Of a stretch of DNA of 64,000 nucleotides, positions 7,684 through 40,203 are shown piece by piece. Every line of letters starts with the position of its first letter. The stretch's first letter is position 1. The stretch is from Botryllus schlosseri (lineage: Eukaryota), in NCBI GenBank assembly GCA_051294905.1, contig CM119371.1, forward strand, positions 13,146,001 through 13,210,000, written 5' to 3'. Position numbers and translations under genes: made by a program. A model generated the notes under the pieces. It saw only the letters and a program-made list of their open reading frames with translations, was not told where the DNA came from and did no database searches.

Positions 7684-7996
7684 CACTGAAGCACCTTTCA
7701 AAGCAACTATGCACCTTTCTTTGGCCGTGGCCCATTTTCCAGTTTGAAAATGTTCTGTGGCCCACATTTTATGCTAGAGACCCGATCCTGCCCGGTGAGG
7801 GTTATAAATGTCGACAAATCTCTTACATATTTTGCCTTTGGGGATATATTCCTCTAAATCTAAATGAGACATTTAGAGAAAATCGGTAAACTTTTAGAGC
7901 AATCGAAAATCGCTCATGCATTCCTTACGGCTATAAGGGCGACAATTTAGTTAGTGCTTAGAGCGCGTGTTATATTTGTCGACCAATGATTACATC

Positions 7997-10900
7997 GCGG
8001 GTAATTATGTTAGTCGGGCGCCGTTTCGCTGCGATCCTATCGTGCAACACCTCACATTACAATTCAATACCTATGTTAACGTATAATATCATAAGAGCCT
8101 CGCGAGACGTGGAGCGAGCGAAGCGTAGCGACACGTCGCCCTTCACAACTAAGGATCCCTATCGTACGACATACAGCAATGTGTATAACAGTTATCGGGT
8201 TCGCTTTATCGGTAAGAATGAAATGCAATAGTATCTTATAAGATAAAGGTTGGTTCAAGTTAGCGTCACGTAGTGAATGAAAGAAAGCGGCAAACTTTGT
8301 ATTGCATTCATTAGCTTTTTTATAGGTTGATCCCGTCCTAGTACCGTAGCGTTCATAGATAATACGGTAAGAAATCGCCATCTCATATTACGCTTAGGAC
8401 TCGTTAAATGTGGTAGTCGTTGCGCTAGCCCTGCGATTAATTCAAACTATTATATACGTATGTAAGCAATGGATGACACGGTTGCAACTTGATTTAATGA
8501 ATACTATAGTGAAATAAACCCACCAATATCATCTGTACTCTATATACACGTAGTCCATTTACGCTTTTGGATGACTATTGGCATATTTGTCAGATGAATT
8601 GACTCGGGTCTCGTTGCAAAAATGAATATAGTTGAAGAGACTTTACTATGCGCTTCTACAATACATAAATATTCAATACTAGAATATCCATATAATAGAG
8701 TCTATCTCCAGTCCTTGAAGGGACAATACACTCGAATCAAGTCTAGGATGTTCTATCGCAAGACATACATGAATATATTTGATCCTAGGATATTCATGCA
8801 TTGCATATGACGGTTGCATCGGTATCGGGTTCGTTTCTCTGGTAACAATCAAAGTCAATGGCACGTACCGACACGTCTCCTCCCATCAAAAAGGTTGGTA
8901 ACCGGTCAATAGCCTACTCATCAAACAGTTACCGAGAACGCAATCATAGAGAATGGAAGTTGCCGAGAACGTCCACCATAGTGAATAGGCATTACAGATT
9001 ATGGACGCCACCGAGAATGGACATTCCGATAATGGACACCACCGAGAATAGACAATACATAGAATGGACATTACCAAGATTTGACACCATCGAGAAATTA
9101 CATCACAAATAACGGATATTAATGAGAATGGACATCACCGAGTATAGACATTTCCGAGAATGGCCAACGTAGGGATATGCATTGCATACTAGTAGAACAT
9201 ACATGCATCAAATTGTCAATTGACTTATACTAACAGCTTACAATGATGAGACGTGGCGGGAGCGTAGCGTAGTGACATGTCGCCATTCATCGTTAAGGAT
9301 GGGCACGTGTCAATACCGTGCAAACCATTACCTATCATGCAAATATTGAAAATTGGCATTACCGAGAATGGGCACCACCATGAATAGACAATGCTGGTTA
9401 TGGACACGATCGAGAATGGACAATACCGAGAATGATCAATACCGAGAATGGACACCACCGAGAATGGCCAATACATAGAATGGAAATTACCGAGAATTGA
9501 CACCATCGAGAAAATACATTACTAAGAACGGATATTACCGAAAATGGACATCGCCGAATATGGACATGACCGGGAATGTCCAACGCGGACAATATAAGTT
9601 AATGAGACGGGCGTGATCGATAGATTCCTATTTCAAACCGCCAATTATTTCGTATAATAATTGACATTCGGACCGAATAACACGTATCAGAACACTGCAC
9701 CTCTCACAGCACTTATCTCACAAAAAATAATTTCAAGTAGTATCGATGTTGGATAATATGCTCGTTAAGTATGAAAAATGGACTTAGTCGCAACCGGGTT
9801 TGTAATGAATCGACTAGAGACGCGATTTATTGATGACTCAAATTGACCCAAGTTATTTTCTGCAAAGACGGAACTGACTCGAATCGAGTCAATATCTTTG
9901 TTGACCCTAATTGGACTCGAGTCATTTCGCATGACTAGCCACTCATACGGCAAGACCGATGTTTGATTTCATTAATAATATCGTGATGGTGGCGCTTATC
10001 ACGGCACAGGTTTGGTGCGCCACTTCTATACTTGTTATTACAATGAATTTGCATTATCCAAATATATACAGTATAGCTCAGTACGTTTGGTATACCAACA
10101 TGTACATTAAATATACGGAGCAAGCCGCCAATGTACAAACACGAGATCAACATATTTGGTTATATAAATATTGGATGTACATGTTTTAGCTATACTATAT
10201 AAACCGTCCCGAAGATATCACGAACTGTACAACGTCATCCTAATAACAAGGGTTGGTTCAAGTTAGCATCACATAGTGAATGAAAGAAAGCGGCAAAGTT
10301 TGCGGGTAATTATATTTGTTGGGCCCCGTTACGCTGCGATCCTATCGTTCGACGCCTCACATTGCAATTCAATACCTTAGTTAACGTATAATATCATAAG
10401 AGCTTCGCGAGACGTGGAGCGAGCGAAGCGTAGCGACACGTCGCCCTTCACCAATAAGGATCCCTGTCGTACGACATACAGCAATGTATATAACGGTTAG
10501 ATAGTTATCGGGTTCGCTTTCTCGGTAAGAATGAAATGCAATGGTATATTATATAATTATAAGGGTTAGTTCAAGTTAGCAGCACGTATTGAATGAAATA
10601 AAGCGGCAAACTTTGTGTTGCTCACATTAGCTATTATATAGGTTACTCCCGTCTTAGTAGCTATTACGGTAAGACATCGCCATATCATATTACGCTTAGT
10701 AGTCGTTAATCGTGGTAGTCGTTGCGATAACCTTGCGATAAGTTTAAACTATTACATACGCATGTAAGTAGTGGATTACGCGCCTGCAACTTGATTTAAT
10801 GACTACTCTAGTGCAATACACCCACCAATACCATCTGTAATCTATATACAATTAGCCCATTTACGCTACTTTTGGATGACCGTTGTCATATTTGTCATAT

Positions 10901-11540
10901 GAAATGACTCGGGTCTCTTGGATGGACTTTACTATGCTCTTCTACAATACATAAAGACTCAATACTAGAATATCCATATATAAGAGTCTATCTCCAGTCC
11001 TTTAAGGGACTCTACACTCGAGTCAAGTTCAGCCATTTTCAAGTATGCTCTATCGCACGACATACATTAATATGAATATATTTGATGGTATGGTATTCAT
11101 GCATATGACGGTTACATAAGGATCGGGTTCGTTTATCTGGTAACAATTGAAACCAATGGCATGTAGTGACACGTCGCTTCCCATCAAAAAGGATGGTCAC
11201 CGGTCAATACCGAGAAAACCATTACCGAGTATGCAATTATAGAGAATGGACATTACAGTCCATGCTGACTGGTATGCATTGAATAATAGTAGAACACGCA
11301 TGCCTAAACAATGTCAATTGACGTATCATAACTGATTATAGTTACGAGAAGTGGTCATGGAGGTAGCGCAACGACACTACGCCCGTCATCGATACGGATG
11401 GTCACAGGTCTATATCGAGCAAAGCATTACCGATAAAGCAATTATTTAAAATGTACAATAATGAGAATGGACATTACCGATAACCGACGCCATCAAGACT
11501 GTACATTACCGATAATGCACAATATCGATAAGAGATACCA
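7997..11540 (+). repeat. Diverged direct duplication in the left arm (copy 1 ~7997-9600, copy 2 ~10302-11540)
   Basis: GCGGGTAATTAT...CGCTGCGATCCTATCGT...GTTAACGTATAATATCATAAGAGC at 7997 and 10302, collinear for more than 1 kb. Confidence 0.9.
8930..9580 (+). repeat. Degenerate ~16-bp tandem array (consensus ACCGAGAATGGACAYY)
   Basis: Many copies such as ACCGAGAATGGACATT and ACCGAGAATGGACACC at 8930-9165 and 9360-9580; remnants at 11207-11540 and ~12090. Confidence 0.85.
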
Positions 11541-12351
11541 CCAGGGTCTGGCCAAGTCAATAGGCTTTGAGTCGCATTTCAATATAACTTTCGTATTATT
11601 ATTAACTCGACTCAATTCCAGTGTATTTTAATTTAATATCGAGGCAAGTCCTAGTCATTATAATATGATTAGCGTCCCATACCACAAGTCATCGTGTTTA
11701 CTGATCCTATTCCAGTTGATGCATGGTTATCACCTTGGTGCTAACGAGTCGTTGACATTTGTTATATTATATTATTCCTCAATTTTATCAGTCCCGTCGC
11801 ATTTTCAACTATACCAGCGCTAATATACGATATCCCAATATTGTAGTTACTCTAATATACTTCAAAATTATAAATAAATGTCGGTCTCGGCCTTTGGGTA
11901 TCGCTTCCTATGACTTGTTCCGAGTCATGCGCGATGACTCTATTCCAAGTCGAGTCAATACACAGCTTCTATATATATAGATTCGAACCGAGTATTTTAC
12001 TTATTTTGAGTATATATGAATTGGAGTCAAGGAGAGTCATCATAAAATCGTGACTTGAGTCGTTGCAACCTGAACCAACTTTGAACACCACCGAGAACGG
12101 ACATTATCAAGAATTGACACAATAGATAACAAATTTTGATTTATCAATTTTACCTATTCTGACATACGATATGTGGGAACAGTATAGCTGTCAACGGCAC
12201 TTCGGTTTGATGCAATAGAGCTGCCAATCGTAACGCTAGTATAAATCCTTTGTTGATATTCAACGTTGACCTGCGCAAAATTACGAAGACACACAAAAGT
12301 ACGAAGATACAACTTTTATAAAGATATTGTTCAACATCACATTTCTAGATG

Positions 12352-38628: not shown

Positions 38629-39022
38629 ACGAAATTATAGATGTCGCCTGATTACGTACATAGTTAAAGAGTCTGATATTGCGACAAAGTTACGATTAAT
38701 GTGTCAATTATAATGATTACTGACATCGTATATGATCCGTGTATGATCTACAGCAGTACATCGAAGTTTCACGATTCAAGTGGCAACCAACTAGTAACGT
38801 AGTGGACAACGCGACATGGTACGACGATATCAACAACGTATACCATTGATATAAACACACGTATCTGATGCAATCCACTATGTAACATAACTATATGTTA
38901 ATTCGTCAATCAGACTATGCATCCATTTGCAGTAACAGCGTCGTCAAATACACGCTCACTCACCTCAAACGTTGTTAAAGTTTTTAACGTCAAAGAGCGA
39001 CGCTGATAGGGTGGTGGGGGGA

Positions 39023-39480
39023 AAAAAGCATAATCAAGCATGCGCTTCCTCACTTGTCAAGGGCGGCGTATCGCTTCGCTAACGCTCGCTCTACGCCTCA
39101 CTAAGCACATATGCAGTATATCGATCGTGACGCGTTGCAGCAAATGGAAAGGGTCAGCAGGACAGAAATGCTGTTCAACAAAAGCATAATCAAGCATGCG
39201 CTTCCTCACTTGTCAAGGGCGGCGTATCGCTTCGCTAACGCTCGCTCTACGCCTCACTAAGCACATATGCAGTATATCGATCGTGACGCGTTGCAACAAA
39301 TGCAACACATATGTCAAACCATTCACTCGGAGCATAATCAATACATTGCGCTTCCTCACTTGTCACGGGCGGCGTATCGCTTCGCTAACGCTCGCTCTAC
39401 GCCTCACTAAGTACATGTGCAGTATATCGATCGCCAAGCTTTGCAGCATATTGAAAAGGTCACATATGTCAGACCATTCA
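39023..39480 (-). repeat. Three tandem ~154-bp sub-terminal repeats carrying the (AGCG)n motif
   Basis: GCGCTTCCTCACTTGTCA(A/C)GGGCGGCGTATCGCTTCGCTAACGCTCGCTCTACGCCTCACTAAG at ~39042, ~39197 and ~39348. Confidence 0.95.
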
Positions 39481-40203
39481 CTCGCGAAATCACGTGATTG
39501 TCACGCCCAGATGCCCATCGTGAATTTGTTATTGTTGGTGCGTACGTGACTCAATAAATAGCGCAGTAGTCAAAGTAACCTGGGCGTGACAGTCACGTGA
39601 TTTCCCGAGTGTCAACACCAATTTTGAGTACACGCTGACAATAACAATAGAATATCTTCGATCCGCTCCCTATACGTCTCAAGAAGCACAGGTGCATCAT
39701 ATCGAAAGGATCAACAGAAGCTAAATACCTCTGATCCACCTTTTACTCATTGAGGCCCACGACAGGATATATTTTGTCGCCCAAAACACCTGGACCGGGT
39801 ACTAGAGTCATATTCCTGCTCAATGCATGGTAATCGCCGGCGCTGATATGCCTATTTCTCTTGAACACGTGCATTACAATTAATAATATTTCAATCTAGA
39901 CCGCTAGGGACAGAAAATAGCGCTCACCGCGACAAAAATTTTCAATTGAATAAATTTCCTCATAGAAACGACCAACGAAATAGTTTTGGGCCCCTTCAAG
40001 CTCCTCCAATTGGGGGTTTGGGGTGCGGAAGTTACGGTCCTGGTAGATCGTATATCTCTAGTGTACATTATGACCGTCCCCTGTTGCACTCGCGTCGCGA
40101 AACTAAATGATACCCATTCCAACTGTGTGATTATTTCTTACTCTCAAAAGTGCTGTAGAACCACTCTTTCAGATATCAAGACGGGGTGTGCTGCAATATA
40201 TAA

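Follow-up and report, generated by a model that had tools for sequence, protein, structure and literature searches.

To our knowledge, giant elements driven by a tyrosine recombinase have so far been established only in fungi, as Starships, whose captain is a DUF3435 protein at the 5' end, and the animal Cryptons described to date are small, single-gene elements without defined ends. Prokaryotic elements such as P4-type satellites, SaPI/PICI and archaeal integrative plasmids have an integrase that acts at an att site of inverted arms around a short core, and in those that pair an integrase with a helicase a superfamily 3 (SF3) helicase replicates the excised circle. Cryptons are DNA transposons that move by a tyrosine recombinase; a paper on them reports 5-6 bp terminal direct repeats for CryptonF and CryptonS and a gene-less, non-autonomous CryptonI-1N1_RPro that keeps its ends, describes animal Cryptons as lacking terminal repeats, and nowhere contains the word "helicase" (PMC3212892). 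Replitrons have a Rep protein without a helicase (PMC10288648). Here we describe a unit of 32,023 bp in the genome of Botryllus schlosseri (assembly of 495.5 Mb in 219 contigs, denoted C1, C5 and so on) which behaves as a discrete element with its own ends and encodes both an SF3 helicase and a tyrosine-recombinase-like protein. It occupies positions 7780-39802 of a 64-kb stretch, C1:13146001-13210000, referred to below as the window. We read it as the 32-kb member of a small family of giant Crypton-like elements (six copies with both ends, 11-35 kb) that integrate site-specifically, a reading to which we assign about an even chance of being right. An earlier note on this DNA had set the locus apart from Cryptons on the strength of its helicase, and this distinction stands: the literature searched yielded no description of an SF3 helicase in a Crypton or in any other recombinase transposon of eukaryotes, Crypton-sequence supplements lying outside that search.

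A repeated unit with sharp boundaries

A colinear second copy lies on contig C5 and aligns, by BLAST against the fetched C5 stretch, to window 7716-40111. Between the window and C5:20750440-20784992 there are 95 mismatches in 32,053 aligned positions (99.70% identity, within window 7775-39812), and the C5 copy carries two extra segments of 146 bp and 2,335 bp. The two copies are distinct, since they lie on separate contigs and their outer flanks are unrelated. The longer extra segment (C5:20758485-20760818) resembles nothing in the window and sits between the equivalents of window 31767 and 31774.

Identity between the two copies changes abruptly on both sides. On the left the step falls at 7774/7775, with 8 mismatches in 58 nt (7716-7774) and none across 7775-8190; on the right it falls at 39812/39813, with one mismatch in 39000-39812 and dense mismatches from 39813 to 40134. 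Outside these steps the flanks consist of parts of a miniature inverted-repeat transposable element (MITE), which are 86% identical between window and C5 on the left (8 of 58 positions differ) and 77.6% identical on the right (308 nt). Both steps lie at most 5 nt from structural junctions. The features at the two ends, in order, are:

7716..7774, + strand: left arm of the host MITE, truncated and diverged, from the inner portion of the 78-nt terminal inverted repeat; alignable with the left termini of six other copies
7775..7779, + strand: left TAGAG direct repeat (CTAGAG at 7774-7779 in the window copy), the proposed crossover or core, or else a target duplication; nine left and six right junctions read
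7780..39802, + strand: unit body, with a near-identical C5 copy and paired ends at further loci
7780..7788, + strand: left 9-nt arm ACCCGATCC, inverted partner of 39792-39800
39792..39800, + strand: right 9-nt arm GGACCGGGT (reverse complement ACCCGGTCC), seen in the right junctions and among the ACCCGRTCC matches
39801..39802: AC dinucleotide between the right arm and the right TAGAG
39803..39807, + strand: right TAGAG direct repeat, identical in all six right junctions read
39808..40134, + strand: truncated, diverged inner/right part of the host MITE

The right structural junction reads GGGTAC / TAGAG / TCATATTCC (39802/39803-39807/39808). The two arms are inverted repeats of each other, matching at 8 of 9 positions, and the pattern ACCCGRTCC occurs four times in the window against 0.44 expected, twice at the unit ends, in inverted orientation, and twice in unrelated contexts (11120 and 50590). 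Every readable right junction (6/6) runs from GGACCGGGTAC through TAGAG into the flank. On the left, TAGAG (as TTAGAG or CTAGAG) precedes the arm in six of nine junctions and the diverged forms TTGGAG, ACAGAG and TTTAAG in the other three, after which the sequence continues into ACCCGATCC, replaced in one copy by AACCGGTCC. If the unit ends were joined, they would give two inverted 9-nt arms around the 7-nt spacer ACTAGAG. Two inverted arms around a short spacer are the architecture of lox, FRT and dif sites.

The left end of the unit has 14 matches in the genome, nine of them at 89-100% identity, and the right end has seven (all candidates scored). They include a right end without a partner at C6:12067465 and distant left ends on C11, C8 and C1 (41.2 Mb); another occupied site is C14:1374226, and a diverged locus lies at C16:22364000-22388000. 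Both ends are present in six copies, of 11.2, 13.1, 16.9, 19.4, 32.0 and 34.6 kb, which lie on three contigs in different flanks. Besides the window and C5 copies, these are:

C3:3831474-3848331: paired-end copy
C15:2953510-2966607: paired-end copy
C15:2539907-2559338: paired-end copy
C3:19961897-19973086: paired-end copy

The shorter copies retain both ends without the helicase and recombinase-like genes. What they have in common is 7780-10242 together with a right backbone:

34061..39802, + strand: right backbone, shared with the shorter copies that lack both genes

We regard these shorter copies as candidate non-autonomous derivatives.

With respect to the block as first described in the earlier note, its discreteness, its repetition in different flanks and its left boundary all hold, mismatches to C5 being dense before 7775 and essentially absent from there on. 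Its right end, which had been placed at 40061, moves inward to the junction given above, near-identity with C5 ending at 39812. The inverted termini CTAGAGA/TCTCTAG proposed for it do exist as 7-mers at 7774-7780 and 40055-40061, but the second lies inside the flanking MITE fragment and the pairing is therefore a coincidence; it is a chance 7-mer with no structural role.

The unit interrupts an abundant hAT-like MITE

The MITE in the window is a fragment (7716-7774 plus 39808-40134) that has neither its outer termini nor a target duplication: the left arm lacks the outermost ~15-20 nt of the terminus (CAGGGGTTCTCAGCC...), and on the right the final ~750 bp, up to and with the terminus ...GAGAACCCCTG, are absent. 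Elsewhere it is more complete. The left ends of six other copies reach outward to the terminus beginning CAGGGGTTCTCAGCC, the right sides of three copies run ~750 bp past the window homology to ...GAGAACCCCTG, and all three complete composites show perfect 8-bp duplications outside the MITE termini (TATTAGAC in C5, GTCTATAC in C3:383 and GTTTAGAA in C15:295). Target site duplications of hAT elements follow the consensus nTnnnnAn; those of the MITE have the 8-bp length of a hAT duplication in each of the three composites and agree with the consensus at 5 of 6 positions. For the first 78-90 nt of the MITE terminus the genome holds at least 1103 candidate matches, and the 40 that were scored all gave E <= 3e-31, many being 99-100% identical.

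The undisturbed target can be read directly. At one locus (L006) the MITE terminus passes straight into a homolog of window 39808 onward over a single TAGAG (...CCCACCGGATATCTTAGAG / TCCTATTCCTG...), and the 19-nt pattern of this uninterrupted junction has 241 matches in the genome (122 forward, 119 reverse; at most one mismatch) against none for a reversed control. It follows that the MITE is the common state and that the 32-kb unit interrupts it. The MITE site and the left end of the unit both have TAGAG and, 5 nt on, ATCCTG.

These data bear on the simplest alternative, that the block is a plain segmental duplication of a repeat-rich region and not mobile at all. Near-identical full copies do number only two. 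However, both ends are present in six copies, which are distributed over three contigs and set in different flanks, their boundaries are constant at TAGAG, their flanks are not paralogous beyond the MITE, and the insertion breaks a MITE that is otherwise found uninterrupted 241 times. We consider this alternative, already disfavored, to be scarcely credible.

A further candidate was that the block as a whole is a single hAT-like non-autonomous transposon with 74-78-nt termini and 8-bp duplications. It was rejected because those termini belong to the host MITE, as shown by the steps in identity, by the MITE without an insertion and by the inverted copy described below.

Other repeats accompany the MITE in the window. 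Four CAGKGSTTCWCAAMC-type termini (5922, 44487, 62242 and 62964) match its terminus with 3 mismatches, where 0.59 such sites were expected, which suggests that other MITE families of the same superfamily may be present. A high-copy repeat of ~285 bp (7402-7690), with dozens of copies at 87-89% identity, abuts the MITE fragment, and GCACCTTTC is present twice where the two join (7682-7690 and 7708-7716).

Evidence for separate placements of the unit

Left flanks could be read for nine copies. Seven are the MITE terminus in forward orientation, two of which (C15:295 and C15:311) share outer flanks and are counted as one event. In another, at C3:32880255, an unrelated flank stops exactly at CTAGAG. 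In the last, C3:19961897-19973086, the left flank is the inner MITE part in inverted orientation: over ~300 nt its reverse complement shares 88.8% identity with the right flank of the C5 copy and 90.2% with that of the C15 copy. On its right this copy adjoins the MITE terminus, likewise inverted (100% identity, 74 nt). One and the same MITE position therefore holds the unit in either orientation. These two orientations, the odd flank at C3:32880255 and the discordance between window and C5 (interior 99.7%, flanks 78-86%) argue that the unit has been placed, at its own boundaries, on three or more separate occasions. The TAGAG repeat, the inverted 9-nt arms, the use of one MITE site in both orientations and the 241 uninterrupted sites together resemble the products of site-specific recombination, in keeping with the tyrosine recombinase invoked by the earlier note.

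In the remaining forward copies, flank and interior have diverged alike, and for these the spread of a composite fits equally well. It could thus be proposed that a single ancient insertion or fusion gave rise to a MITE-plus-unit composite, that the MITE's own hAT-like transposase spread it, and that in the window copy, by then an old and decayed composite, ectopic gene conversion or recombination replaced the interior with that of a C5-like copy. Such a history would suit the three composites with perfect 8-bp duplications outside the MITE termini, the similar divergence of flanks (80-90%) and interior (86-89%) when C5 is compared with C15 and C3:383, and the MITE termini that are 99-100% identical in many copies, which imply a recently active transposase. 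Nevertheless, entry of the unit into a resident MITE would by itself account for the 8-bp duplications, and it would be an unlikely coincidence for a conversion tract of 32 kb to stop no more than 5 nt from each junction when the flanks that escaped it are short (59 and 327 nt) and 14-22% diverged. Since the composite history also leaves the inverted copy in the same MITE site and the left end with an unrelated flank unexplained, we hold it to be distinctly unlikely.

An SF3 helicase of Rep/NS1 descent

The first of the two conserved genes is:

16541..18169, + strand: helicase gene, with upstream exons 16541-16768 and ~16821-16955 and a main open reading frame (ORF) at 16958-18169 (403 aa)

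The gene is interrupted in a manner compatible with introns: the upstream exons are conserved with diverged paralogs (tblastx), and a GTAAGT donor begins at 16769. The main ORF contains Walker A (GTPGAGKT), Walker B (KSDDA), motif C (ITSN) and an arginine finger (RRF) in SF3 order, and in an alignment of 30 sequences G176, K177, N260, R280 and R281 are invariant and D215 nearly so (>=90%). An AlphaFold model of the protein has a pLDDT of 79.5, with 224 residues at >=90. In a Foldseek search ranks 1-10 are papillomavirus E1 (E 3e-7), followed by AAV2 Rep40, SV40 large T, B19 NS1, SaPI5 and NrS-1 helicases; the top matches range from E 3e-7 to 1e-4, with modest TM-scores (0.3-0.55). Sequence searches were less informative. 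The ORF has no Pfam match, with none for Parvo_NS1, Viral_Rep or RNA_helicase above threshold, and PDB sequence searches returned P-loop stretches only. A word-index protein search gave a single match for the helicase and a single one for the recombinase-like ORF, and longer proteins yielded none.

A profile built from six members of the family recovered 89 proteins among 1.84 billion representatives, all of them unnamed proteins from metagenomes or run assemblies, and ten of the more distant among these have sub-threshold matches to DUF5906 or RNA_helicase. Full-length relatives carry R.R.WAFT, HRHG/HHHG and YIxYMYK in their N-terminal part, the three motifs of HUH Rep nucleases. The upstream exons of the window gene gave no match to the nuclease profile (E 0.2-2.2). 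The window protein is thus an SF3 helicase of Rep/NS1 descent whose nuclease domain is unrecognizable in this copy.

Within its own genome the helicase ORF has 68 matches, mostly decayed, many of them in C3:4.8-9.2 Mb. This zone contains about half of the helicase matches and many recombinase-like matches, mostly with stop codons, and looks like a graveyard or cluster of these elements.

At 25 metagenome loci (L074-L098 among them), the helicase gene often follows an ORF on the same strand. The phospholipase A2 (PLA2) domain of parvovirus VP1, PF08398, was found in 3 of 30 ORFs from nine metagenome contigs (E 7e-12 to 2e-7, above the curated cut-off), in each case directly upstream of an HUH-motif helicase relative, as at L080 (1-1584 and 1629-3692), L088 (1057-1554 and 2717-4039) and L091 (3081-3989 and 4808-5899). 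Contigs with such pairs also bear piggyBac and Pao-type retroelement genes. Judged by gene content, these VP1-PLA2 plus Rep units look like an undescribed parvovirus-like lineage that may be endogenous in some eukaryote. A search of our genome with PF08398 gave no match and was uninformative, as the control went unmatched too.

The same relatives invite the idea that the unit is an endogenous virus, either a parvovirus-like provirus or one of the polinton-like viruses or virophages, which pair SF3 helicases with tyrosine recombinases. The unit's size falls within the range reported for polinton-like viruses (PMC12220804), its helicase relatives adjoin PF08398 ORFs, and they carry the HUH-type motifs WAFT, HxHG and YxxK. 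The gene content of the unit speaks otherwise. Among its 144 stop-to-stop ORFs of >=62 aa there is no capsid, penton, packaging ATPase, protease or polymerase match, the sensitivity of Pfam being limited for divergent capsids; the "virus-like" label of the earlier note thus loses its footing. The metagenomic VP-like ORFs have no homolog in the window (best E 0.12) and none at the own-genome loci compared, none of the 25 metagenome helicase loci has the recombinase-like gene, neither 2.9 million viral contigs (IMG/VR) nor an initial metagenome scan yielded helicase relatives, and the unit combines intron-bearing genes with a very low coding density. We regard a viral origin of the unit as very improbable.

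A probable tyrosine recombinase

The second conserved gene lies on the opposite strand:

26630..29742, - strand: tyrosine-recombinase-like gene, several ORFs plus a conserved 3' exon, with interruptions compatible with introns
29742-29161, - strand: ORF of the zinc-finger-like N-terminus
29128-28700, - strand: ORF of the middle part
28675-27860, - strand: ORF of the catalytic part, with R48, K81/K83, Q184-H185-L186-R187, H211 and Y220 (numbering of this ORF)
26886-26632, - strand: conserved 3' exon (tblastx)

By tblastx, the ORFs and the 3' exon are conserved in up to 12 paralogous loci, and the recombinase motifs are kept in paralogs at 31-59% identity. A hydrophobic stretch is missing or interrupted in paralogs and looks, on comparison of the copies, like an in-frame intron. 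The spacing of the catalytic residues is 24 from R187 to H211 and 9 from H211 to Y220. The corresponding spacings in Cre and XerD are 23 and 9. An ESM Atlas feature search with two paralogs placed integrase, Phage_integrase, protelomerase and NDC10_II clusters nearest, at 0.92-0.95, on a scale where about 1 in 100 shuffled sequences scores 0.95. By its motifs and these language-model look-alikes, the gene at 26630-29742 is probably, rather than provably, that of a tyrosine recombinase.

A second recombinase-like lineage, ~40% identical, has intact ORFs of 242 aa and 281 aa and no helicase match nearby. It forms at least 12 tandem units at C30:17080-212534, spaced ~17-18.7 kb, and at least seven contigs (C9, C49, C4, C3, C22, C114 and C132) carry it in their first 8-31 kb. 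Its positions at contig starts or ends include C9:7583, C49:8399, C4:24910, C3:17078, C3:25428, C22:30837, C114:21014, C132:14887, C16:213859 and C2:40580568 (loci L045-L048). Its distribution suggests that it may be a subtelomeric tandem element.

The two genes lie together more often than chance predicts

To quantify the association of the genes, genome matches were clustered into 35 helicase and 52 recombinase-like loci, and loci were called linked when the partner lay within 30 kb. By this measure 10 of the 35 helicase loci and 11 of the 52 recombinase-like loci are linked. Outside the C3 hot zone 5 of 17 helicase loci are linked, two of them being the window and C5 copies (binomial 6e-8, for an expectation of 0.63% of the genome within 30 kb of a recombinase-like locus in which general repeat clustering is uncontrolled). 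In 7 of the 10 linked pairs the identities of the two genes to their window counterparts agree within 14 points (100/100, 100/100, 80/85, 73/59, 47/47-54, 36/40 and 37/35).

A diverged relative on C1 shows the same gene order as the window over ~47 kb (positions are those of the matches): a left end at 23040815 (72% identical), the helicase at 23062131 (+ strand, 73%), the recombinase-like gene at 23078277-23087077 (- strand, 59%) and the inner MITE part at 23088411. The conserved order of end, helicase and recombinase in this relative, together with the co-divergence of the two genes, is the reason for regarding both as belonging to the element. Co-occurrence of the genes elsewhere in the genome, put forward in the earlier note as a check, is borne out. 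Their independent occurrence, which that note had named as a result that would speak against it, is found as well, most copies of each gene standing alone, though linkage exceeds chance.

Other contents of the unit

Beyond these two genes the unit holds little that is recognizable. None of the 144 ORFs matches a relevant Pfam family at E <= 0.01 (there are four isolated sub-threshold matches), including DDE transposase, reverse transcriptase, integrase and capsid families, and a PHROGs search returned nothing; the recombinase-like gene and the helicase are the only enzyme-like genes found. The three-gene plan of the earlier note accordingly survives in two of its parts, the SF3 helicase on the + strand and the gene with recombinase motifs on the - strand, both with intron-compatible interruptions. 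The third part, an N-like nucleoprotein cargo gene, is not seen, nothing among the ORFs being nucleoprotein-like, and the ORFs at 20.9-22.1 kb have no DNA copies in the genome beyond the window and C5.

Two internal tandem arrays and two nested high-copy short repeats are also present. The arrays are:

18957..20985, + strand: tandem duplication of 2 x ~1015 bp, 3' of the helicase ORF, 95-98% identical (families D4 and D6)
26868..27533, + strand: four 168-bp tandem units that separate the catalytic ORF of the recombinase-like gene from the conserved 3' exon (D8 and D11)

GC content is ~40% in the window and climbs to 45-49% at 16-22 kb and 26-30 kb. Four separate pieces of C10, scattered across 7.6 kb (C10:3777639-3785254), match the segment at 23696-24415 colinearly (89-91% identity, ~12-nt overlaps), and by this arrangement the segment looks like a captured, spliced multi-exon gene fragment from C10. 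The repeat at 25418-25951 (~530 bp, 84-95% identical to many loci, with further copies at 51279-51628 and 55002-55349) is the sole part of the stretch with RNA reads, which fall on both strands.

Integration by a recombinase or by a transposase acting in trans

A number of observations weigh against the view that the unit integrates through a recombinase of its own. The protein departs from known families. The usual tyrosine recombinase box is H-x-L-R-H-x-x-A-T; here its H-x-x-R part reads Q-H-L-R (QHLRKMLAT), with the first His displaced. Pfam, Phage_integrase, DUF3504 and DUF3435 included, gives no match at E <= 10 for 11 recombinase-like paralogs, PF00589 gives none against the whole genome, and a PDB profile search with the recombinase-like alignment and PHROGs returned nothing relevant. 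Comparison with P1 Cre and lambda Int by hhalign gives a probability of ~0.1, single templates being thin, and the AlphaFold model reaches a pLDDT of only 38. For the helicase, the HUH nuclease domain is undetectable in the window copy, where the family profile aligns only from the motif III Lys (positions 133-429). The partner gene is absent at most loci (25/35 for the helicase, 41/52 for the recombinase-like gene), three of the ten linked pairs, all in the C3 zone, are discordant in identity, and one recombinase lineage stands in contig-end tandem arrays without a helicase. RNA depth is ~0 over both genes in three RNA runs (1.0-1.9 billion letters each) and one contig set, and the head-to-tail pattern of a circle junction has no match in the assembly, so that neither source lent support to the excision as a circle or the replication envisaged by the earlier note. 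Finally, five of the six forward MITE-embedded copies could stem from one insertion followed by spread through the MITE transposase, which would leave three cases as evidence of independent events, namely the window, the copy in inverted orientation and the odd flank.

The ends themselves point the same way in one respect, as a TAG or TAGAG duplication with flush 11-nt imperfect inverted ends also suits a trans-acting cut-and-paste transposase. On this account the unit would be a large non-autonomous DDE transposon with ends AGACCCGATCC / GTACCCGGTCC and a 3-5 bp duplication (TAG/TAGAG), mobilized in trans and preferring the MITE site, and its genes would be passengers or remnants. A duplicated TAGAG and inverted ends suit staggered-cut insertion equally well, the block contains captured or foreign material (the segment related to C10) and nested high-copy repeats, and both genes show no RNA and stand alone at most of their loci; a Crypton in a mariner shell, MarCry-1_FO, is a published precedent for recombinase genes riding in DDE elements (PMC3212892). 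On the other hand, no transposase gene was found among the ORFs of the unit, nor is a partner known, the inverted ends need a 3-nt duplication to be flush and are offset by 2 nt with TAGAG, and passengers would leave the conserved order of end, helicase and recombinase in the 72% relative, and the co-divergence of the two genes, without explanation. We therefore think a trans-mobilized DDE transposon unlikely.

Taken together, the structure of the ends, the single TAGAG in 241 targets, insertion in either orientation and the genes that the unit carries are best fitted by site-specific integration through a tyrosine recombinase encoded by the element.

A model for movement of the unit

Under site-specific integration, the recombinase-like protein would be active and responsible for insertion, a circular form would exist, and the helicase would serve the element. 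The element's own recombinase would join the unit ends into GGACCGGGT-ACTAGAG-ACCCGATCC, a site of 9-nt arms and a 7-nt spacer as in lox or FRT, and would then recombine this joined site with a look-alike in the abundant hAT-like MITE (TTATCT-TAGAG-TCATAATCCTG). This exchange would leave a TAGAG on either side of the inserted unit. The SF3 helicase, derived from a Rep/NS1-type replication initiator, could unwind or replicate the excised form, a step for which the prokaryotic integrase-plus-helicase integrative elements serve as the model.

Taken to its full extent, this model would make the unit the first eukaryotic counterpart of the integrase-plus-helicase elements: a non-fungal giant that passes through a circle via a lox-like 9-7-9 site, uses a captured parvovirus/CRESS-like Rep helicase and finds a safe harbor in a MITE. 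We offer this fuller proposal tentatively, as a possible but doubtful one. If it is true, target choice of the Crypton type, passage through a circle and replication of that circle become directly testable, because the element combines sharp ends, a predicted short recombination site, an abundant defined target and a linked viral-type helicase. A eukaryotic recombinase with a short, specific target would also be of practical interest. Independently of the unit, the helicase family points, via the VP1-PLA2 plus Rep units in metagenome contigs, to what may be an undescribed parvovirus-like lineage.

Relation to described elements

The unit resembles Cryptons in its intron-bearing recombinase-like gene, in the absence of reverse transcriptase and DDE transposase matches from its ORFs, and in having no long terminal repeats of its own and a 5-6 nt direct repeat (TAGAG/CTAGAG) at both ends; its gene-less derivatives keep their ends, as CryptonI-1N1_RPro reportedly does (PMC3212892). 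It differs in size (11-35 kb for the family against a few kb), in its second conserved gene, in its insertion at one defined MITE site, and in showing no similarity to DUF3504 (CryptonA) or GCR1_C (CryptonF), the described groups having been compared through their Pfam families.

Among published structures, MarCry-1_FO of Fusarium is the nearest precedent for a recombinase gene enclosed by DDE-type termini. As at our locus, such a gene is bounded there by inverted termini and target duplications of the DDE type; that composite moves as a mariner with TA duplications (PMC3212892). The unit described here has instead its own constant boundaries, occurs in both orientations, and has an interior far more similar between two loci than the MITE shell around it.

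Starships and Enterprise are likewise giant cargo-carrying elements, fungal and presumed to be moved by a tyrosine recombinase, with short terminal direct repeats (PMC10104507, PMC8092012). The unit is non-fungal, carries a helicase and has no DUF3435 match, and its recombinase-like gene is internal, at distances of 10 kb (right) and 19 kb (left) from the two ends.

Polinton-like viruses and virophages combine a tyrosine recombinase with an SF3 helicase in integrated elements of 14-40 kb (PMC4642659, PMC12220804). In contrast to these, the unit has no double jelly-roll capsid, penton, packaging ATPase or protease match among its ORFs, its coding density is low, and its helicase belongs to the Rep/NS1-like family and not to the primase-helicases. 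With parvovirus NS1 and CRESS Rep proteins it shares a helicase fold matching AAV2 Rep40 and B19 NS1, and its relatives have WAFT, HxHG and YxxK motifs and a neighboring PLA2-bearing VP-like ORF; it differs in that Parvo_NS1, Viral_Rep and RNA_helicase do not match above threshold and that the nuclease motifs are unrecognizable in the window copy.

The closest working analogy would be with the prokaryotic integrase-plus-helicase elements, and the SaPI5 primase-helicase is among the fold matches of the unit's helicase. Those elements belong to another domain of life and have no detectable relationship to the unit in integrase sequence, and the unit is known from sequence alone; what the two would have in common is an integrase acting at inverted arms around a short core, joined to an SF3 helicase for the excised form.

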